Source of the DNA: a virus
Reading direction: 5' to 3' (one strand)
Length of the DNA: 45,876 nucleotides
IMG/VR virus record: IMGVR_UViG_3300045612_000232
The position numbers and the translations under genes are program-made. Under the pieces are notes generated by a model. It was not told where the DNA came from, searched no databases, and saw nothing but the letters and a program-made list of their open reading frames with translations. Of the stretch, positions 2,774 through 44,645 are shown piece after piece (positions within the stretch are counted from its first letter, which is position 1; every line of letters begins with the position of its first letter).

Positions 2774-4027
2774 ATGGCTAAAATCGTTACCCCACTTACT
2801 GATAGTAAGATAAGAACTGTTATTTCTAATCAAAAAAAAGAAGATCAAAAGAGAGCTTTTAAGTTAGCTGACGGTAAAGGCTTGTATCTATTGATAGATA
2901 AGCATGGTGGTACTTATTGGCGATTCGACTATACACGCCCTATCGTTAAGACTCGTAATACTATTGCTATTGGTGTCTACCCAGAAATTACATTAGCTCA
3001 AGCACGGCAGTATCGAGAAAAATTCAGATCAGAGCTAGCTAACAACCAAGATCCAGCAACTGAGAAGAAACATGAAGAACATCGTCAGGTATTTGCTTTA
3101 AAAAATACTTTTGAAGCGATAGCTAAAGACTTCATGGAAACCGAAGTACTTGCGGAATCTACATCCCAAAGAAATCAGTTTGTTTATAAATACCTTTTTC
3201 AAGCTATTGGTCATCGCCCTATCAACGAGATCACAGCAATTGAGTTATTAGACATTTGCAAGATTTATGAAAAACAAGGAAAAGTAGAAACTGCAAGAAG
3301 AATGCGGTCAAAAGCTTCTCAAGTGTTTAAATATGCTATTGCGTTAGGCATTTGTGATCGAAATGTTGCTCATGATATTCAAGGAATCATTAAACCAAGA
3401 AAATCTGAACACAATGCTGCAATAACAGATCCAAAGTTACTTGGTAAATTAGTATATTTAGTTGAGCAATATAATGGTCGTGGATCTATATCCGTCGCAT
3501 ATGCAATAAAGATACTGCCTCATGTTTTTACGAGACCAGGAGACTTACGACAAGCAAAATGGGCCGACATAGATTTTGATAATAAACAGTGGAAATTCAC
3601 ACCCAAGAAAACAGCAAACTCACTTTCTATAGATCTTATTGTTCCCTTGTCTGATCAGGTTTTTCAGTATTTTAAAGAACTATATACAATAAATGGAAAT
3701 CAGGAGTTTTGCTTTGCTAGTAACTCCACTGCTGGTGTTATAAGTGAATCAAGCATCAATAAAGCACTTAAGAATTTAGGTTTTATTAATGGTGAGACAA
3801 CTGGACATGGCTTTCGTGCAACTGCAAGAACTCTCTTGGATGAAGTTTTGAGATTTCCAATTGAACGAATTGAACAGCAACTTGGCCATCAGGTTAGAGA
3901 TGTGAATGGTCGTGCATACAATAGAACTAAGTATCTTGAAGAGCGTGTTGTGATGATGCAAGCTTGGTCAGACTACCTTGATTCATTAAAGAGCGAGTAT
4001 GAGAAATCTAAACTACTGCATGAATAA
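2774..4027 (+). CDS. int: Tyrosine integrase, P4-type (DUF4102 arm-binding N-terminus)
   Basis: 'LTDSKIRTV...FKLADGKGLYLLIDKHGGTYWRFDY' at the N-terminus. Catalytic region 'HGFRATARTLL', 'LGHQV', 'RAYNRTKY'. Confidence 0.95.
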   Translation: MAKIVTPLTDSKIRTVISNQKKEDQKRAFKLADGKGLYLLIDKHGGTYWRFDYTRPIVKTRNTIAIGVYPEITLAQARQYREKFRSELANNQDPATEKKHEEHRQVFALKNTFEAIAKDFMETEVLAESTSQRNQFVYKYLFQAIGHRPINEITAIELLDICKIYEKQGKVETARRMRSKASQVFKYAIALGICDRNVAHDIQGIIKPRKSEHNAAITDPKLLGKLVYLVEQYNGRGSISVAYAIKILPHVFTRPGDLRQAKWADIDFDNKQWKFTPKKTANSLSIDLIVPLSDQVFQYFKELYTINGNQEFCFASNSTAGVISESSINKALKNLGFINGETTGHGFRATARTLLDEVLRFPIERIEQQLGHQVRDVNGRAYNRTKYLEERVVMMQAWSDYLDSLKSEYEKSKLLHE

Positions 4028-4039
4028 TTGAGAATAAAA

Positions 4040-4165
4040 ATGAAAGACTGGATCTACTTCTACATTGAACACACTATCAAGTATGGCGAGCCTTTTTATA
4101 AAGAGGCTGGGTGGTCAATTGGTTTAAAGAATAGTTACGACATTATGACTAAATTACCAAGCTAG
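4040..4165 (+). CDS. Possible small ORF (41 aa, MKDWIYFYIEHTIKYGEPFYKEAGW...)
   Basis: ATG lies 12 nt after the int stop. No clear RBS and no motif. Confidence 0.25.
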   Translation: MKDWIYFYIEHTIKYGEPFYKEAGWSIGLKNSYDIMTKLPS

Positions 4166-4199
4166 TCGCATAGGAATTTTTTTAAATTGAGATCTTGAA

Positions 4200-4637
4200 A
4201 TGGAAAGTAATAAGAACATATTAATTAGAAACTTAGCTGAAAGTGTTCTTAGATGCCTCGAGAATGAATTAAGCGGATTTATTAATAGTTGCTACGAACG
4301 ATTCCCTCATGGCTGTTGCGATATTGCCTCTGGTCTATTATATAGAGCATTATGTAATGAAGGTTATGAGGATATTTTTATAATTAGAGGTGCAAATAAA
4401 GATAATTTATATCATGTTTGGGTTGAAGTTGATGAGTTAGTTATCGATTTAACTTCACATCAATTCGAACTCTTCGAAAAACCAATGATATTAATTAGAA
4501 AAAATGAATTTCCTTTAAATAAAATACCATTTTATTCTGATACTGAATTAACTGATATAAATGATTGGGACTATTTTAATTGCCTAGCTATTGAGTTTTT
4601 TGAGATTTTTTACAGTCAATATTATACTCGGCAATAA
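4200..4637 (+). CDS. Minimal transglutaminase-like / papain-fold protein (putative Cys-His-Asp triad)
   Basis: 'PHGCCDIASGLLYRALCNEGYEDIFIIRG' ... 'YHVWVEVDELVIDLT' follows the transglutaminase-core pattern G-x-C-x-x-(F/I)-A ... H-x-W-x-E-V ... D. The gene is visibly AT-rich and lies 27 nt upstream of the SRAP gene. Confidence 0.5.
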   Translation: MESNKNILIRNLAESVLRCLENELSGFINSCYERFPHGCCDIASGLLYRALCNEGYEDIFIIRGANKDNLYHVWVEVDELVIDLTSHQFELFEKPMILIRKNEFPLNKIPFYSDTELTDINDWDYFNCLAIEFFEIFYSQYYTRQ

Positions 4638-4664
4638 TTTAAAAATGTAAAACTGAGGTACTAC

Positions 4665-5309
4665 ATGTGTGCCAACTATCAACCGATTTCAAAAAGTCGC
4701 GCTCAATTTCTAAATTTGTTTGAGCCTACATTTGACTATAAAACCGACGTATACCCTAACTATGAAGGTCCAATCTTGTTCTCAAAACGCGGGAATATTG
4801 AATGGCGTTTAGCTCGATTTGGTCTAGTTGCACCATGGTTAGATGATATTAAGAAAGCAAAGAATACATATAACGCTAGAACAGAGACTGTGGCGACAAA
4901 ACCAAGTTTCCGTAATGCATGGAAGAAAAACCAATTTTGTCTTATTCCTGTTGAAACTATTTTTGAACCAAAATATATCGATGGCAAGTCTCATTGGTAT
5001 GGGATTTATCGCAGAGATGAAATGCCTTTTACTGTTGCTGGCATCTACGAATATGCGGTTATAGATGGCACTGAATACAGATCCATGTCTATGTTAACGA
5101 TCAACTCTGATTCACATCCCTTCATGAATCAATTCCATGCTCCTGAAGATGAAAAACGTTCAATAATTGTTATTCCTCAAGAGCGCAGAAATGATTGGTT
5201 GAATTGCTCACATGATCAAGCTCAAGATTTCTTCTTCGAGATGCCTGTAGATGAGTTCACAGCAGCACCAAAATCAGAAATGCATAAATTCCGACCAAAC
5301 GCTCATTAG
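4665..5309 (+). CDS. SOS-response-associated peptidase (SRAP; YedK/HMCES family abasic-site sensor)
   Basis: Met-Cys2 N-terminus 'MCANY'. 'YNARTETVATKPSFRNAWKKNQFCLIPVETIFE' matches the NAR-x-ET...F(R/K)...RCLIP...EW core. A downstream His lies in 'QFHAPEDEKRSIIVIP'. Confidence 0.85.
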   Translation: MCANYQPISKSRAQFLNLFEPTFDYKTDVYPNYEGPILFSKRGNIEWRLARFGLVAPWLDDIKKAKNTYNARTETVATKPSFRNAWKKNQFCLIPVETIFEPKYIDGKSHWYGIYRRDEMPFTVAGIYEYAVIDGTEYRSMSMLTINSDSHPFMNQFHAPEDEKRSIIVIPQERRNDWLNCSHDQAQDFFFEMPVDEFTAAPKSEMHKFRPNAH

Positions 5310-5436: not shown

Positions 5437-6063
5437 ATGTCTAAGAAGTTGCCTATCTACTTCTCGGATGGTGCATGGTCGAGTTTACAAACTCTCATGG
5501 GACCTGAAGGGAAACCTAGTACTACCATCAATTCCTTGCTTGAACAGATCTCGATTCAAACAGATCTGATCGATAAGCTTGGTCTCACACCTATCCTTCC
5601 AAAGTCTAAATCCTCTATACCTATGGCTTTAGAGCGCATTCCAGCTGGTCCTGCTTTTGCGACCAAAGATGATCTAGAAACTACGGTGGATCTGAATGAA
5701 TATCTCATTCACAATCCTATATCATCGTTTATAGCACGTGTAGACAGTGAGTCGATGTTGGGTGCTGGCCTTGAAATTAATGATCCCATCATCATCGATC
5801 GAAGCATAGAAGCTGCTCATCAAGATATTGTAGTTGCACTGATCGACAATAAAGACTCTACGATCAAGCGACTTATGATTACAGCCAAAATGTCTAAGTC
5901 GGAAATCAAAGAGATCTTTGGGGATGAAGATTATCCTTTACCTAAGGTTTGGCTAAAAGCTGAGAATCCTGCTTTTCAACACATCATTCCTGACGATAGC
6001 CAAACTGTTGTTATATGGGGTGTGGTGACGTTCAACTTAAAGCGTATGTGTTACCGCTCATAA
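5437..6063 (+). CDS. umuD: UmuD-family S24 self-cleaving protein with an extended N-terminus (UmuDAb-like)
   Basis: '[29 protein letters not shown]' aligns with E. coli UmuD '[24 protein letters not shown]'. Putative Ala70-Gly71 cleavage site ('RIPAGPAF'). Lys in 'STIKRL'. AGGAG RBS. Confidence 0.9.
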
Positions 6064-6077
6064 TAAGAAGAATAGTC

Positions 6078-7373
6078 ATGAAAAGTAATACAAGGATATT
6101 CGCGCTAGTGGATGTCAATAACATGTACGCATCTTGTGAACGTGTTTTTAATCCATCCCTTAATGATCGCCCAGTAATTGTGCTTAGCAATAATGATGGC
6201 TGTGCCGTGGCTAGAAGTCAGGAAGCAAAAGATCTCGGAATAAAAATGGGTGTTCCACTATTCCAGATTGAAGACATTGTTAAGAAGTACGATGTTCAGG
6301 TTCTCTCAAGTAACTACGCTCTATATGCTGAAATGTCACGCAGATTCATGAATCTGCTTAGCCAATATGTTGCGCCAGGAGAGCAAGAGATTTATAGCAT
6401 TGATGAGTGCTTTCTTGAATTAACAGCATTCGAGAAAAACTATGATCTAACTGAATACGCTCAGGAAATGAGATTGAAGGCTCAACAATGGCTAGGATTG
6501 CCCTGTTGCATTGGAATTGGCCGCAGTAAGACTGAGGCTAAAATTTCGAACCATATAGCGAAGAAAAATAAGTATTTCAATGGGGTTTGTAATTTAGTAG
6601 AGATGGACCCGTGTTCATCTGAGCAATTACTCGCGCAGATAGATATTGGCGAGGTTTGGGGCGTTGGTCGCCAAAACTGTAAGAAACTAAACTTAATGAA
6701 TATTAAGTCCGTATTGGATCTGATTGAGTCAAATCCGAAAGAGATTAAGAAAAGCTTTTCGATTGTAATGGAAAAAACTGTCCGCGAGTTGCAAGGCGTT
6801 TCATGCATCGATATTGAAAATGAAAACCCATCAAAGCAGCAAATCATAAGTAGCCGTTCGTATGGCCAACCCGTCTTAGAGAAAGATGATATTAAATCAT
6901 CAGTGCGATTATTCGTAACGAGAGCGGTAGAACGTATGCGTCATGATGGATCTATTTGTAAAATGATAGGTGTATTTATTCAGACTGGCCGTTTTAACCA
7001 GAGTGAAAAATACTCCCCCTACATCATTGTACAAATGCATGAACATACAGATGATTTATTAGAAATTACCAGGGCAGCAATGAAAGGGATCGATCAGATC
7101 TACAAGAAGGGATTCAAATATAAAAAGGCTGGCATCGTATTGCTCGAGTTAATTCCGAAGTCGAAATTTGTACCTGATTTATTCACTGACTACACGCACC
7201 GAAATCAGCGCGAAAAGCTTTCTAAAACGTTGGAAGCTATCAAACAAAAATACGGCAAAGATCATGTTTCATTAGGACTTTGCAATGACACTAAGGCTAT
7301 CTGGCAGATGAATCAAAACCGCCGATCGCCCTCTTATTTAACGAATTGGAATGAACTTTTTAGAATAGGATAA
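6078..7373 (+). CDS. umuC: UmuC, Y-family DNA polymerase V catalytic subunit
   Basis: '[52 protein letters not shown]' is near-colinear with the E. coli UmuC N-terminus. I prefer the ATG at 6078 over the track start at 6015, which overlaps umuD. Confidence 0.95.
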
Positions 7374-40688: not shown

Positions 40689-41189
40689 TCAGGCTTTTTC
40701 TTTTTGAGCATGTGCTGTGTATTTCTGCATTTGCTTAAGTGCTGCTTGGTCCACGGCGGTAATCAACTCAATCAAGCCCTGGGTAATTTGGTGGATCTCT
40801 TCATATTCAGAAGGTGTAATCACCCCATCCTCATAAGCCTCATACACAACTCGGTTCGCCTTTCCGCTCTTAATGTTGTGTTTCATCATTGCTTCAAAGA
40901 TCGAAAGCTCATGATGTTTGCTAGCATCACAATTCACTGGTACTAGTGCATAACCCATTTGATGTGCCCACACTTTTAAAATTTCAGGGTTCTGCGTGTA
41001 CATCATGATGGTTTCAAGCTTCTTTAGGCTTGGTAAGTGATTTGGCATCCCTACGTTGCCGTAGTTGCAAATAGTGTTATGTGAATCACCAGTGACTTGA
41101 GCAATTTCCTTTGGTGAAATCCCCTGCGTCTGGTTAATCATTTTGAAAATTGCCGTTTGAGCTTCACGACTTAGTGTTATTTCTTGCAT
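40689..41189 (-). CDS. CII-like regulatory protein (putative)
   Basis: Second gene after cro. HTH-like 'ISPKEIAQVTGDSHNTICNYG'. Confidence 0.4.
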   Translation of the reverse strand: MQEITLSREAQTAIFKMINQTQGISPKEIAQVTGDSHNTICNYGNVGMPNHLPSLKKLETIMMYTQNPEILKVWAHQMGYALVPVNCDASKHHELSIFEAMMKHNIKSGKANRVVYEAYEDGVITPSEYEEIHQITQGLIELITAVDQAALKQMQKYTAHAQKEKA

Positions 41190-41259: not shown

Positions 41260-41454
41260 TCAGGATGCATGTAATGCATTTAAATCAGCTTTTAGTTTTC
41301 CTTCAGTTAAGATTTGAATACGTGCCTGTGTATCGATGGGAATTCCGCGATGTCTCCACTTGCTAATTGTTCCTCTTGTGACTCTTAAGATGGTTCTAGT
41401 TAGCTGGATATCGTTTTTCACACCGAAATGGTCTTTAAGATCATCAACGGTCAT
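41260..41454 (-). CDS. cro: Cro/YdaS-like HTH repressor
   Basis: 64 aa, 'RVTRGTISKWRHRGIPIDTQARIQILTEGKL'. Divergent from cI. Confidence 0.75.
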   Translation of the reverse strand: MTVDDLKDHFGVKNDIQLTRTILRVTRGTISKWRHRGIPIDTQARIQILTEGKLKADLNALHAS

Positions 41455-41555: not shown

Positions 41556-42299
41556 ATGAGCTCTATTAGTGATCGTATAATTCAAAGAATGACTGAGTTA
41601 AAAGTTCGTCAAGTTGATTTGATAGAAGCAACTGGAGCTACTAAAGGTGCTGTTTCAAAATGGGTGGCAGGAACAAATGTACCTAAAGCTGAATATTTAC
41701 CAGGACTAGCAGCAGTGTTAAAAACTACTCAAGAATGGTTATTAACTGGAAAAGAGCCTGAAAAATTAAATACATTTAAAATGCAAGAATTCATGGATAA
41801 ACATGGGCTTAAAAAGATTGACGATTCATCTTTTGATGTAAATGACATTCATGAACCAACTGTAGTTGATTATGAAATTGAAAACGGTTTTATTTGGATC
41901 GATGTGGTAGAAGCAAATTTTTCATGTGGCACAGGTGAATCAATTGAATTTCATTTTGATGTAATAAACGGTAAGTTCCCTTTTCCTCCTTCATTTTTCC
42001 AAAAGAAGTATGTAGATCCTAGATGTATGAGAATCATTAAAGCTAAGGGTGACAGTATGTCCGATTTTATCCATGATCAGGATTTAGTTGGCATCGACAT
42101 TTCTCAAACGGAAATCATAGATGGTGAAATTTACGCGGTCTATTTTGAAGGTGAAGGCATGATTAAGCAGATATTTAAAGAAGAAGGTGGAAAGCTAATC
42201 TTACATAGCCTGAATCCCAAATATCGTGATAGAGAAGTAACAGAACAGAATGGTTTAAATTTTAAAGTTATGGGTCGTCAATTTTGGCGTGCAGGATAA
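41556..42299 (+). CDS. cI: CI-type repressor (XRE HTH + S24 LexA-like autopeptidase)
   Basis: 'VRQVDLIEATGATKGAVSKWVAG' (HTH). 'KGDSMSDF' (Ser) and 'GMIKQIF' (Lys). GAGGGA RBS before the ATG at 41556. Confidence 0.9.
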   Translation: MSSISDRIIQRMTELKVRQVDLIEATGATKGAVSKWVAGTNVPKAEYLPGLAAVLKTTQEWLLTGKEPEKLNTFKMQEFMDKHGLKKIDDSSFDVNDIHEPTVVDYEIENGFIWIDVVEANFSCGTGESIEFHFDVINGKFPFPPSFFQKKYVDPRCMRIIKAKGDSMSDFIHDQDLVGIDISQTEIIDGEIYAVYFEGEGMIKQIFKEEGGKLILHSLNPKYRDREVTEQNGLNFKVMGRQFWRAG

Positions 42300-42304
42300 T
42301 ATAG

Positions 42305-42325
42305 CTGTGAACCCGACACAGTTTT
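42305..42325 (+). terminator. Weak hairpin + T4 after cI (likely partial terminator)
   Basis: ctgtg-aacccga-cacag followed by tttt. Confidence 0.3.
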
Positions 42326-42353
42326 AAAACAATGAATAAAATATTTAATTTAA

Positions 42354-42387
42354 TTGCAATTGAAAATAGTTAACTTATAAGGTAACT
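42354..42387 (+). promoter_or_regulatory. Candidate promoter TTGCAA-16-TATAAG overlapped by the 20-bp palindrome AGTTAACTTATAAGGTAACT
   Basis: -35 at 42354-59, -10 at 42376-81. The palindrome at 42368-87 has one mismatched pair and ends 8 nt before the ORF1 ATG. Confidence 0.45.
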
Positions 42388-42394
42388 TGCACAA

Positions 42395-42898
42395 ATGATA
42401 GACCCTTACTTTTTCCTTTGGGATGAATTAGGATTTCCTGACAATCTTCATCCAATTGTCATACCTGATAGCATGAGGGTCTATATGCTGTCATCATCAC
42501 AGGATAAACGAGATGTATTTCTGTACCGTGATAGAACAGAGTTTTCATTAACCAGTAAACGGGATAACGAGGATGTTGTTAGGCTGTTTTCTCAACTAGC
42601 TTCTCGATGTGAGATGTGTGAACATCCCAACGAATTGTTTGATTTTTATAATTCGTCAGAGTTGCATAAAGCGCACACTACAAAGTTGGATGGTAAAGAT
42701 ATAGCAATATATAGAATCAGGAAAGCAAACCTTAGGCTTTATTTGGTTTTTGTTGATGCTTATATCATATTGTTTAGGTTATCCCCTAAGCGCAAGGACA
42801 AAATTGATAATTCTGAAAAGATAATCCTTGATAATCGTGTTAAGGCAATTTTCAAGTATCAAGCTAACACGGAAGCATTCTTAGTGAGATTGTTATGA
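42395..42898 (+). CDS. Gp49/HigB (RelE-fold)-like putative toxin with a ~90-aa N-terminal extension (167 aa)
   Basis: C-terminal 'IAIYRIRKANLRLYLVFVDAYIILFRLSPKRKDKIDNSEKIILDNRVKAI' follows the Gp49-like pattern. ATGA overlap with the downstream HTH gene. Confidence 0.5.
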   Translation: MIDPYFFLWDELGFPDNLHPIVIPDSMRVYMLSSSQDKRDVFLYRDRTEFSLTSKRDNEDVVRLFSQLASRCEMCEHPNELFDFYNSSELHKAHTTKLDGKDIAIYRIRKANLRLYLVFVDAYIILFRLSPKRKDKIDNSEKIILDNRVKAIFKYQANTEAFLVRLL

Positions 42899-43446
42899 AT
42901 AAAGCATATTTGCTTTCATGTAAAAGTGTAGATATGTCCATTGTAAAAATGGAACAAATCGCTTCACATTTGGTTGGCTTATTGCGCCATAGTAATATGA
43001 GTCGTGCAGAACTAGCTGCCCAGCTTGGGTGGAAAAAAAGTCGAGTTACCAAAGTTTTATCAGGCGATGAAAATCTAACTATTAAAACTATTACCGCGAT
43101 CACCCAACAGTTGGGCTATGATTTTGATGTTGTTTTTCACAATAAAAATTACGAGAAGCCGAAGCAACCCTGGCAAGTTGATCGAGAAAAATTGTTATCT
43201 AAAAGCATTTTTGTTAATGCTAATCGTGAGCTTAAGCTCGCTTTAGAATTTCAAACTGGTGCGCAAGTTGTTGATGCTGTGTTGAGTGGTAATGAAAGTG
43301 ATTTTTACATAAGTATAAATCCATCACACCCAACAGAATACAAAGAAGTAATTTCTGTAACGCCCCAGATTGAAACTGAATCTAAATCCATCAGCGTCAT
43401 CTATCAACATCAAGAAACATTCAAAGAGGCAGTTTGTTATGAGTGA
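42895..43446 (+). CDS. XRE-family HTH protein (HigA-like putative antitoxin) with a ~100-aa C-terminal extension
   Basis: 'MSRAELAAQLGWKKSRVTKVLSGDENLTIKTITAITQQLG'. Confidence 0.7.
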   Translation: MNKAYLLSCKSVDMSIVKMEQIASHLVGLLRHSNMSRAELAAQLGWKKSRVTKVLSGDENLTIKTITAITQQLGYDFDVVFHNKNYEKPKQPWQVDREKLLSKSIFVNANRELKLALEFQTGAQVVDAVLSGNESDFYISINPSHPTEYKEVISVTPQIETESKSISVIYQHQETFKEAVCYE

Positions 43447-43756
43447 TAATCAGGGAAATTCCACTGCTCAAGAGAAAACTGAGTTAAAAACTATCTTGAA
43501 CCCAAGCATACAACCCATCTATGCAGATCATATAATGCAAGTTGCGATGGAACCTAGTACCTTAAAATTGGTATTGGGTTGTAGAGTTAATAATCAGGTC
43601 GTGAATAACGCTACGATTGTATTACCTCTAAATGTTGTATTGGGGTTACAAGACGCATTAAAAGACATGTTTTCTAACCCAGATATTCAACAACTCATCC
43701 TTACTGATTTTGAAAAAAATTGCAACCAACTGAAAGAAAGATTCGGTAAGAAGTAA
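43439..43756 (+). CDS. Small third component (105 aa), possible SecB/DUF3467-like protein
   Basis: ATG at 43439 overlaps the ORF2 stop by 8 nt, with an AGAGG RBS. 'IQPIYADHIMQVAMEP...TLKLVLGC...ATIVLPLNVVLGLQDALKDMF'. Confidence 0.55.
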   Translation: MSDNQGNSTAQEKTELKTILNPSIQPIYADHIMQVAMEPSTLKLVLGCRVNNQVVNNATIVLPLNVVLGLQDALKDMFSNPDIQQLILTDFEKNCNQLKERFGKK

Positions 43757-43810
43757 TTTATCAACAGTAGCACCTGAGAACCAAGAATTTTAGCTTAGAG
43801 ATCTAATGTT

Positions 43811-43836
43811 AACCCGCCTAGTGCGGGTTTAATTTT
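43811..43836 (+). terminator. Intrinsic terminator closing the cI-distal operon
   Basis: aacccgc-ctagt-gcgggtt followed by taatttt. Confidence 0.75.
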
Positions 43837-43853: not shown

Positions 43854-43926
43854 GTTTCCAATCATAAAAATAAAAGTTTCTTTTAATAAACTTTTTGTTG
43901 ACTTGTTAGTTTCCTTTGGTAAACTT
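43854..43926 (+). promoter_or_regulatory. PL-like early promoter with operators of the same family as the cI-cro region
   Basis: GTTTCCaatcATAAAA at 43854-69, GTTTCTtttaATAAAC at 43876-91, GTTTCCtttgGTAAAC at 43909-24. TTGACT (43898-903), 16-nt spacer, TAAACT (43920-25). Confidence 0.5.
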
Positions 43927-43999: not shown

Positions 44000-44458
44000 A
44001 TGGAACAAAACACAATTCAAAGCAATTCAGCTTTGCCTTTCGGTAAGGTTGTATTAGGGACATGGGCAGCTTCAAGCTTATTGATATTCGGAATAGCATG
44101 GGCAGTTTCATCTTGTGATTACCAAACAGCTCACTCAAGCCAACCATCAATTGCAAACGTAACTCCAAGCTACTACGGCGTTATGACACTCAAACTTACA
44201 TCTGACACTACTGGTGAAGCGATCGTTAATCTTGATGGTTACCACGTTTTTACCAGCTTCGATTTTGAGTTGGTTCCTGATTACAACGGCGCGTTAGGTA
44301 GCGACACAAAGGCCGTATTCATTACAAATCTGGCTGTAGACCGTGTTTTATTGGCTAACGGCGGCTTTTATAACGATTTCACTAATGCTGATGACATCCG
44401 CAACATGATCTCAGTCATCACTGCCCACATCGAACGCAACAATATGGTAAGGGGGTGA
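44000..44458 (+). CDS. Early-expressed putative lipoprotein (152 aa)
   Basis: 'LLIFGIAWAVSSC' is a signal peptide with a lipobox-like VSSC. First gene after the PL-like promoter. GAGG RBS. Confidence 0.6.
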   Translation: MEQNTIQSNSALPFGKVVLGTWAASSLLIFGIAWAVSSCDYQTAHSSQPSIANVTPSYYGVMTLKLTSDTTGEAIVNLDGYHVFTSFDFELVPDYNGALGSDTKAVFITNLAVDRVLLANGGFYNDFTNADDIRNMISVITAHIERNNMVRG

Positions 44459-44462
44459 TCTG

Positions 44463-44645
44463 ATGAAACTGGAACTAGAAAACCTTTCAGAAGCACAAGC
44501 TATGGCTTTGGCTCAATTCGTTAAGCGTGTTGGCTGGAACGAAATCCGTATAAATGCTGTAAACCATGATGAGGCACATCTCATGCGTGATGCCATTTCA
44601 AAACTTCAAGACGCACTGGCTCGCCAGGGCTATGCGCCACGTTAA
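44463..44645 (+). CDS. Hypothetical 60-aa protein
   Basis: AAGGGGG RBS context, repeated at the next two genes. Confidence 0.55.
   Translation: MKLELENLSEAQAMALAQFVKRVGWNEIRINAVNHDEAHLMRDAISKLQDALARQGYAPR

Follow-up and report, generated by a model that had tools for sequence, protein, structure and literature searches.

A putative mobile three-gene toxin-antitoxin-type cassette with an orphan third component downstream of the cI-like repressor of an Acinetobacter prophage

Gp49-like HigB toxins and their helix-turn-helix (HTH) partners, among them phage N15 gp49/gp48, Tad-Ata, Streptococcus pneumoniae HigBA (6AF4) and Vibrio cholerae HigBA2, form toxin-antitoxin (TA) modules carried by phages and plasmids. 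In these modules the toxin gene comes first and overlaps that of an XRE-type HTH protein, the toxin has a RelE fold with a long C-terminal helix and basic residues at its catalytic positions, and a palindromic operator lies at the promoter. A toxin of the same structural family is found in toxin-antitoxin-chaperone (TAC) modules, such as HigB1-HigA1-SecB(TA) of Mycobacterium tuberculosis and the prophage-encoded HigBAC of Escherichia coli, which are tricistronic and encode, after the toxin, a C-terminally extended antitoxin and a small SecB-like chaperone; TACs are documented as being carried by prophages and as taking part in phage defence. In other three-component systems, namely pasABC of plasmid pTF-FC2, paaR2-paaA2-parE2 and omega-epsilon-zeta, a toxin of the RelE/ParE superfamily is combined with an antitoxin and with an additional small protein acting as a modulator of neutralisation or regulation. 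Here we analyse three consecutive genes (ORF1, ORF2 and ORF3) in a stretch of viral DNA of 45,876 nucleotides (IMG/VR record IMGVR_UViG_3300045612_000232; hereafter, the window), which corresponds to an Acinetobacter prophage. A previous reading of the window from its letters (the original prediction) had proposed that these genes form a miniaturised TAC module. Our results make it probable that the region is an autonomous, horizontally mobile three-gene cassette of the TA type, with a HigB-like toxin, an HTH antitoxin acting also as autorepressor, and an accessory third protein, ORF3.

ORF1 (167 aa), ORF2 (183 aa) and ORF3 (105 aa) are all encoded on the plus strand directly after the gene of a cI-like repressor (Table 1), the gene arrangement described in the original prediction being confirmed and all the peptide strings quoted in it being present in the translations. 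The overlaps that it reported were also found, the first being an ATGA shared by ORF1 and ORF2 (42895-42898) and the second an 8-nt stretch shared by ORF2 and ORF3 (43439-43446). A Shine-Dalgarno sequence, AAGAGG, lies 8 nt upstream of the ATG of ORF3 at 43439. The terminator expected to close the operon was retrieved by our scan, and its stem-loop (43811-43829) consists of a 7-bp stem with five G-C pairs followed by a T-run.

The structure predicted for ORF1 points to a toxin. The AlphaFold2 (AF2) model, built from an alignment of 24 sequences, is a single domain (pLDDT 90.1, pTM 0.88) whose core comprises helices 55-73 and 78-83, antiparallel strands 90-98, 101-110, 113-120 and 123-131, and a long helix 139-152. 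This is a RelE-type fold that includes the long C-terminal helix typical of Gp49-like HigB toxins (PMC9098466), preceded by an N-terminal extension with strands 5-8 and 28-33 and helix 42-49. When the model was compared with the PDB using Foldseek, ranks 1 to 12 were all occupied by toxins of the RelE superfamily (HigB, HigB2 and RelE). The best match was S. pneumoniae HigB (6af4_G; E 1.2e-3, probability 1.0, target TM 0.65, 134 columns) and other top matches were 5ixl HigB, 1wmi RelE, 5mje HigB2 and 7awk HigB1. The list spans Proteus vulgaris HigB, archaeal and mycobacterial RelE and V. cholerae HigB2, and the TAC toxin HigB1 of M. tuberculosis (7awk) appears in it at ranks 15 and 31 with a TM of 0.56. 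Thus, the RelE/HigB (Gp49-like) fold that had been recognised in the C-terminus of ORF1 was confirmed, although it extends beyond the C-terminus and leaves ~50 extra N-terminal residues instead of the ~90 initially supposed. The motif CEMCEH, located within these first ~90 residues, was considered as a metal-binding site and rejected, as it is not conserved and only one Cys is semi-conserved.

At the sequence level, the indications are weak and go in the same direction. A diverse ORF1 profile (A8) searched against PDB sequences at E<=10 retrieved a single match, again S. pneumoniae HigB (6af3/6af4, E 0.47); a narrower profile had given only a chance match to MJ0951, such that the broader one was needed. 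The alignment of the profile with 6af3 places R109, R114 and K132 of ORF1 on R68, R73 and K92 of HigB, which correspond to K54, R61 and R81 of RelE and to R68, R77 and K95 of M. tuberculosis HigB1, the mutation of which abolishes toxicity (PMC9098466). The three ORF1 residues are invariant, together with G13, P15, D46, H91, R107 and E141, in 13 sequences with identities down to 26%. Gp49 (PF05973) was the only Pfam family matched by more than one member of the ORF1 family (3 of 24, plus two distant homologues, one from a metagenome-assembled genome (MAG) and one from a plasmid), always with the same segment, the one singled out in the original prediction, and with E-values of 0.038-0.21. The ORF1 of the window itself had no match in Pfam at E<=1. 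Neither Pfam, NCBIfam nor PADLOC provided a credible match for this protein, the similarity to a Type I specificity subunit found with PADLOC (E 0.0076) being at chance level, and its only solid library match was phrog_36882, a family of unknown function. From the model and these alignments, we conclude that ORF1 combines the fold of HigB-type mRNA interferases with residues that are probably those of their active site, and that it is too divergent for membership in Pfam Gp49.

ORF2 contains a Cro/C1-type HTH (Pfam HTH_3 at residues 32-78, E 1e-6, 29.1 bits against a cutoff of 23 bits) within an XRE HTH region spanning residues ~17-80. An alignment of 27 sequences showed, before this strongly conserved HTH, a short N-terminal segment with a hydrophobic-F-x-D motif and, after it, the invariant triplet Q91-P92-W93 and then a conserved block, Q120..G132..Y138. 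The C-terminal extension comprises ~90-100 residues, the last ~45 of which are variable, with alternating aromatic and hydrophobic positions. The HTH_3 match and the alignment therefore agree with the XRE HTH plus ~100-aa extension initially described. A Cro/C1-type HTH encoded beside the toxin gene and coupled to it, in this case by a 4-nt overlap, is a feature of HigA/XRE-type antitoxins, and the solved HTH sequences nearest to ORF2 are VapI/HigA-type and HipB antitoxins, all of them weak matches. The PADLOC models PDC-M64B/C match only the HTH of this protein (9e-11). ORF2 is 100% identical to a protein of Acinetobacter junii.

The cassette appears to travel with its own regulatory DNA. About 36 bp upstream of the start codon of the first gene are conserved in 8 loci, and the DNA located farther upstream is not alignable. 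The 20-bp palindrome reported for this block in the original prediction is real, with 9 of its 10 pairs matched, and its core TTAACTTATAAGGTAA (42370-42385) is one mismatch away from a perfect palindromic 16-mer, TTAACTTATAAGTTAA; none of 100 shuffles of the window gave a match to this 16-mer with one mismatch. Wherever the upstream DNA of a locus is readable, a copy of TTAACTTATAAGTTAA occurs 0-12 nt (usually 6-10) before the first gene. This copy is perfect in a Rep3 plasmid, a Klebsiella plasmid and two metagenome contigs (L025 and L026), has one to three mismatches in the other loci, and is kept even where ORF1 identity falls to 26-28%; three loci carry an additional weak match, with three mismatches, elsewhere. 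This conservation at the same position is what would be expected from the operator-like element for autoregulation that had been proposed. Since Acinetobacter and Klebsiella share the operator and the ORF2 HTH has a near-invariant recognition region, we consider that there is strong indirect evidence for autoregulation by ORF2. The promoter announced next to ORF1 was not reproduced: our simple scan gave no site there, the original candidate having a G at the last -10 position and hence failing the scan rule. Two sigma-70-like promoters may be read in the sequence, TTGAAA(42360)-17-TAACTT(42383) and TTGCAA(42354)-16-TATAAG(42376). Both readings are possible, and the palindrome overlaps the candidate promoter. 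ORF1 lacks a Shine-Dalgarno sequence and its start codon lies, in every locus, a few nucleotides after a -10-like hexamer (42383-42397 in the window), so the mRNA of the cassette may be leaderless or nearly so.

The third gene encodes an orphan protein. The AF2 model of ORF3 (pLDDT 83.5) consists of a disordered N-terminus (residues 1-20), three antiparallel strands (31-63) and two helices (64-102), with a conserved segment, N..QPIYAD, between the disordered N-terminus and the strands. Pfam, PHROG, PADLOC and NCBIfam contained no match to this protein. The best Foldseek matches in the PDB, the AMPK-beta C-terminus, the SAS-6 N-terminus and Pur-alpha, all had E>0.1 and none was credible, and a comparison with BFVD retrieved only uncharacterised phage proteins at E>0.01. 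The ORF3 family is very small, with six relatives retrieved by a word-based search and only 13 clusters by an exhaustive profile search that covered 1.84 billion cluster representatives. One homologue, in Acinetobacter sp. CFCC 10889 (L002, 3420-3674), is only 84 aa long, as it diverges and ends early after residue ~75, which looks like a frameshift or a sequencing error.

All three genes were found together, with each product homologous according to family hidden Markov models (HMMs), in 13 distinct full trios, whose proteins measure 159-169, 153-206 and 87-118 aa, respectively. Their contexts were obtained by exact-protein look-ups of diverse relatives of ORF1, ORF2 and ORF3, with the products checked by the family HMMs, further trio copies and 16 viral contigs being checked only in part. 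Whichever of the three proteins was taken as the starting point, the same three-gene order was always retrieved. In several Acinetobacter prophages the trio follows cI, and in some cases other morons, for example an Ltp-like lipoprotein, intervene. In prophages of the A. pseudolwoffii type (L013-L015, ~4100-4931), a KTSC-domain protein and an Ltp-like lipoprotein, of a superinfection-exclusion family, separate cI from the trio, the post-cI region being a stack of exclusion or defence morons. In an Acinetobacter higginsii prophage (L007, 5001-6378, and L008), the trio is found instead between genes of the tail-tube/terminator region and the tape measure gene. This second moron site implies that the cassette moves as a unit between phage insertion sites. 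Elsewhere in Acinetobacter the trio lies beside a nuclease gene or YdcA. The ORF1 and ORF3 families are common in prophages of Acinetobacter baumannii, one variant being listed in 198 blocks of the assembly collection.

The distribution of the trio extends well beyond this genus and beyond prophages. It is also present in Psychrobacter and on a small Rep3 plasmid, and starting from the ORF3 relatives that are most distant it was reached on metagenome contigs as well. Another copy belongs to a Burkholderiales MAG (L017, 6895-8557), where it lies within 2-3 kb of PIN/FitA-like and TacA/GNAT (TacT-like) pairs in a small TA island. In Klebsiella oxytoca, a ColE1-type plasmid of only 3597 bp (CP056503.1) encodes Rop, one HTH protein and the trio (163, 198 and 98 aa), which is its only evident cargo and is preceded by a perfect operator palindrome. 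ORF1 homologues were also found in 17 IMG/VR viral contigs, and tblastn against the INPHARED phage collection found none. The original prediction had regarded the trio as uncharacterised, and indeed it is not named in Pfam, NCBIfam or PADLOC, PHROGs covers only ORF1, with a family of unknown function, and our literature searches found no description of it. PADLOC-DB v2 assigned no system (e.g., the candidate PDC-M64), as only the HTH of ORF2 was matched and ORF3 had no match, and the source records label the ORF1 and ORF3 relatives as 'hypothetical protein'. Since both families are functionally unannotated in the libraries and records checked, TA and defence catalogues built on these models would miss them.

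The three proteins have evolved at different rates. Over the 13 loci, mean pairwise identity was 43% for ORF1, 54% for the N-terminal (HTH) half of ORF2, 25% for its C-terminal half and 31% for ORF3, and ORF1 identity correlated with that of the ORF2 HTH half (r = 0.92) and with that of ORF3 (r = 0.75). The junctions differ as well: ORF1 and ORF2 overlap by 4 nt in 11 of the 13 loci, and for ORF2 and ORF3 the extremes are a 14-nt overlap and a gap of 37 nt. The correlations and the steady ORF1/ORF2 junction favour ORF1-ORF2 as the core TA pair. The ORF2 tail and ORF3 would then be an accessory pair in rapid diversification, and their rates would fit a specificity or sensor pair mounted on a conserved toxin-plus-operator core.

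The cassette shares with the Gp49-like HigB/HTH modules the toxin-first order with an overlapping XRE-HTH gene, the fold and basic residues of the toxin, the palindromic operator at the promoter and the carriage by phages and plasmids. It differs from them in that ORF1 is ~50 residues longer at the N-terminus and falls under the Pfam Gp49 threshold, ORF2 is about twice as long as a typical HigA, with the QPW motif and an additional C-terminal half, and a third gene is obligatory. The layout of TACs is also recognisable in the succession of the toxin, a C-terminally extended antitoxin and a small third gene, but their defining SecB-like chaperone is missing, as ORF3 has no detectable relation to SecB in sequence or fold. 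pasABC and the other three-component TA systems have another gene order, with no homology seen for the third component, whereas the cassette has a regulator-like HTH protein in the middle and the orphan protein at the end. From these comparisons of sequence and layout, the cassette would be a mobile tripartite module of the HigBA type with a novel obligate third component, TAC-like in its organisation without being a TAC member.

In such a module, ORF1 would most likely act as a ribosome-dependent mRNA endonuclease and ORF2, translationally coupled to it, would most likely neutralise the toxin and would also repress the operon by binding the 16-bp palindrome over the cassette's own promoter. 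We infer these two roles of ORF2 from the HigBA/Tad-Ata architecture and from the co-conservation of operator and HTH. By analogy with the SecB-like chaperone of TACs or with PasC, ORF3 would most likely be an accessory protein that stabilises or modulates the antitoxin via the fast-evolving C-terminal half of ORF2, and it is possibly also a sensor of infecting phages. Loss or displacement of ORF3 or ORF2, caused by a phage trigger, proteolysis or plasmid loss, would then free the toxin. In this prophage, the post-cI site and the weak terminator of cI would allow expression in the lysogen, as for lambda rexAB, and from this moron site the cassette would function as an abortive-infection/exclusion or addiction module, whereas its copies on small plasmids would contribute to plasmid maintenance. 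A more specific version of this mechanism, which we put forward as a speculation that is rather doubtful at present, is that ORF3 represents a new class of antitoxin guardian and phage sensor unrelated to SecB, which would hold the ORF2 tail until displaced by a phage protein, with release of the HigB-like RNase. This would be an independent and convergent form of the TAC logic, spread by prophages and small plasmids through Gammaproteobacteria and Betaproteobacteria.

Other readings of the locus have to be weighed against this one. It seems extremely improbable that the cassette is a true but miniaturised TAC, with ORF3 being a remote SecB/DUF3467 chaperone and the C-terminus of ORF2 containing the ChAD element to which it binds, despite several suggestive traits. 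In fact, the order of toxin, extended HTH antitoxin and small third gene is that of the M. tuberculosis and E. coli HigBAC modules and is kept in the 13 full trios, the TAC toxin HigB1 is among the structural neighbours of ORF1, the ORF2 tail is variable and aromatic-rich, and the succession of strands and two helices in ORF3 loosely recalls the SecB monomer. However, none of 24 proteins (21 ORF3-family members and 3 distant homologues) matched Pfam SecB (PF02556) or DUF3467 (PF11950) at E<=10, and the ORF3 of the window had no match to DUF3467 at E<=1. An hhalign comparison of the family with E. coli SecB, using a query confirmed to be identical to PDB 5jtl, gave a probability of 1.2% over a 15-residue IQxIYxxDI string only, and no SecB chain occurred among the 50 Foldseek PDB matches listed, all with E>0.1 and TM<0.45. 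Moreover, the ORF3 core, with ~65-80 residues and three strands, is half the size of SecB. The SecB likeness put forward in the original prediction was rejected, the motif behind it being short and due to chance. With its β3-α2 structure, ORF3 is an orphan that is not homologous to SecB, and of the TAC claim the tricistronic layout stands and the SecB-like component does not, such that 'miniaturised TAC' is an analogy at best. Alternatively, the roles might be redistributed as in PaaR-PaaA-ParE or omega-epsilon-zeta, with ORF2 serving as regulator only and ORF3 directly neutralising ORF1. Three-component TA systems with a separate regulator, such as paaR2-paaA2-parE2 and omega-epsilon-zeta, are established, and ORF3 is strictly co-inherited with ORF1 and resembles many antitoxins in its small size, disordered N-terminus and short conserved motif N..QPIYAD. 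Nevertheless, we consider this alternative unlikely, since in Gp49/HigB-type modules it is the adjacent HTH protein that serves as antitoxin (Gerdes 2025, PMC11980606), and the N-terminal F-x-D and invariant QPW motifs that ORF2 has outside its HTH would be needless in a pure regulator. The steady ORF1/ORF2 overlap, as opposed to the variable ORF2/ORF3 junction, and the closer tracking of ORF1 by the ORF2 HTH half than by ORF3 argue in the same direction.

A third possibility is that the trio is not a toxin system at all, ORF1 being a catalytically inert RelE-fold protein within a regulatory or otherwise non-toxic accessory moron operon. The position of ORF1 below all family thresholds would be compatible with it, the extra N-terminal 50 residues might confer another function, and M. 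tuberculosis HigB2 and HigB3, which belong to the same family, are non-toxic (PMC9098466). This reading is very unlikely in view of the basic residues at the three catalytic-equivalent positions and H91, invariant down to 26% identity, and of the places where the trio is found, as sole cargo of a 3.6-kb ColE1 plasmid and also on a small Rep3 plasmid, at a TA-rich MAG site and in two prophage moron sites. Such a distribution on small plasmids, beside TA pairs and in two moron sites is typical of TA and defence modules. Several observations do weigh against the HigBA-type cassette that we favour. The ORF1 family lies under every RelE, HigB and Gp49 threshold (best Gp49 E-value 0.038, 14.5 bits against a cutoff of 23.9 bits), the Foldseek E-values of ORF1 are marginal (1e-3), the alignment that locates its catalytic residues has E = 0.47, and an hhalign comparison of the ORF1 family with the single sequence of phage N15 gp49 aligned the right segment with a probability of only 1.6%, which is uninformative. 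ORF2 lies far under the HigA equivalog TIGR02607 (15.3 bits against a cutoff of 47.7), no relatives of ORF3 can be recognised by fold and its proposed role draws only on analogy and on the co-variation of evolutionary rates, and expression in lysogens is assumed from the position of the cassette.

Table 1 Features of the cassette and of its cI neighbourhood in the window.
Feature	Position	Strand	Evidence
CII/CP76-like gene, divergent from cI	40689-41189	-	context
P22_Cro-like gene, divergent from cI	41260-41454	-	context
cI-like repressor, HTH + Peptidase_S24	41556-42299	+	Pfam Peptidase_S24 2.6e-21, phrog_4 1e-43
Weak hairpin 3' of cI, 5-bp stem CTGTG/CACAG, 7-nt loop, then TTTT on + strand	42305-42325		terminator scan and sequence reading
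Conserved promoter/operator block travelling with the cassette	42354-42388	+	~36 bp kept across 8 loci
Operator-like palindrome AGTTAACTTATAAGGTAACT	42368-42387		9/10 pairs; 12-nt overlapping arms at 92%
ORF1, putative toxin, 167 aa, N-terminally extended divergent Gp49/HigB-like RelE-fold protein	42395-42898	+	AF2, Foldseek and profile search
ORF2, putative antitoxin and autorepressor, 183 aa	42895-43446	+	Pfam HTH_3, alignments
ORF3, obligate third component, orphan family, 105 aa from ATG 43439	43439-43756	+	AF2, library scans
Intrinsic terminator AACCCGC-CTAGT-GCGGGTT then TAATTTTGAC	43811-43836	+	terminator scan

At the DNA level, only the cI region of the window matches phage records, namely two Acinetobacter phage records (including Acinetobacter phage MD-2021a) with 76% identity. 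With the trio immediately 3' of cI and the cro and cII genes divergent from cI, the rexAB position assigned to it in the original prediction is correct: the cassette occupies the same niche as lambda rexAB, directly 3' of cI on the repressor transcript, a site of lysogen-expressed exclusion genes. However, it has no similarity to rexAB in sequence or architecture, RexAB being a two-protein system made of a sensor and an ion channel. The hairpin noted after cI is present and is weak, with its 5-bp stem; our scan placed a terminator-like site (42305-42321) on the minus strand, and the plus-strand reading comes from the sequence itself. This hairpin could be leaky and let transcription from the cI promoter read into the cassette.

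Other features of the window were recorded in passing. Just past the cassette terminator there is a promoter-like sequence, TTGACT-16-TAAACT with an upstream TG (43898-43925), followed by an ORF of 152 aa (44000-44458) whose N-terminus resembles a lipoprotein signal (…WAVSSC). This protein had no Pfam match and may be another lysogen-expressed moron, involved for example in superinfection exclusion. The next ORF, of 60 aa (44463-44645), encodes a clear member of DUF7706 (1.9e-27), a family of unknown function. At the other end of the window, a tyrosine integrase (2774-4027) has arm-binding, central and catalytic domains, and a gene for a UmuC-like Y-family polymerase (6015-7373) is preceded by an ORF of 208 aa (5437-6063), such that the region 5437-7373 looks like prophage-borne umuDC-like cargo. 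Searches of the window with Rfam and for tRNAs gave no match, hence there is no sign of an RNA component.

A HigB-like TA pair on a prophage is in itself ordinary, and if the trio were simply HigBA plus a passenger gene that can be dispensed with, it would amount to no more than a divergent representative of a very large family. What makes it notable is the strictly conserved orphan third gene, the operator shared by Acinetobacter and Klebsiella and the possible convergence with TACs, which have recently been shown to sense phage structural proteins via their chaperone. If the proposed reading is true, the sensing of infection by guardians could be studied in a compact system of three genes and ~1.4 kb, the 16-bp operator of which is defined. 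The presence of an unrelated small protein in the same slot of a HigBA-type module would then mean that the addition of a guardian to a TA pair has evolved more than once.

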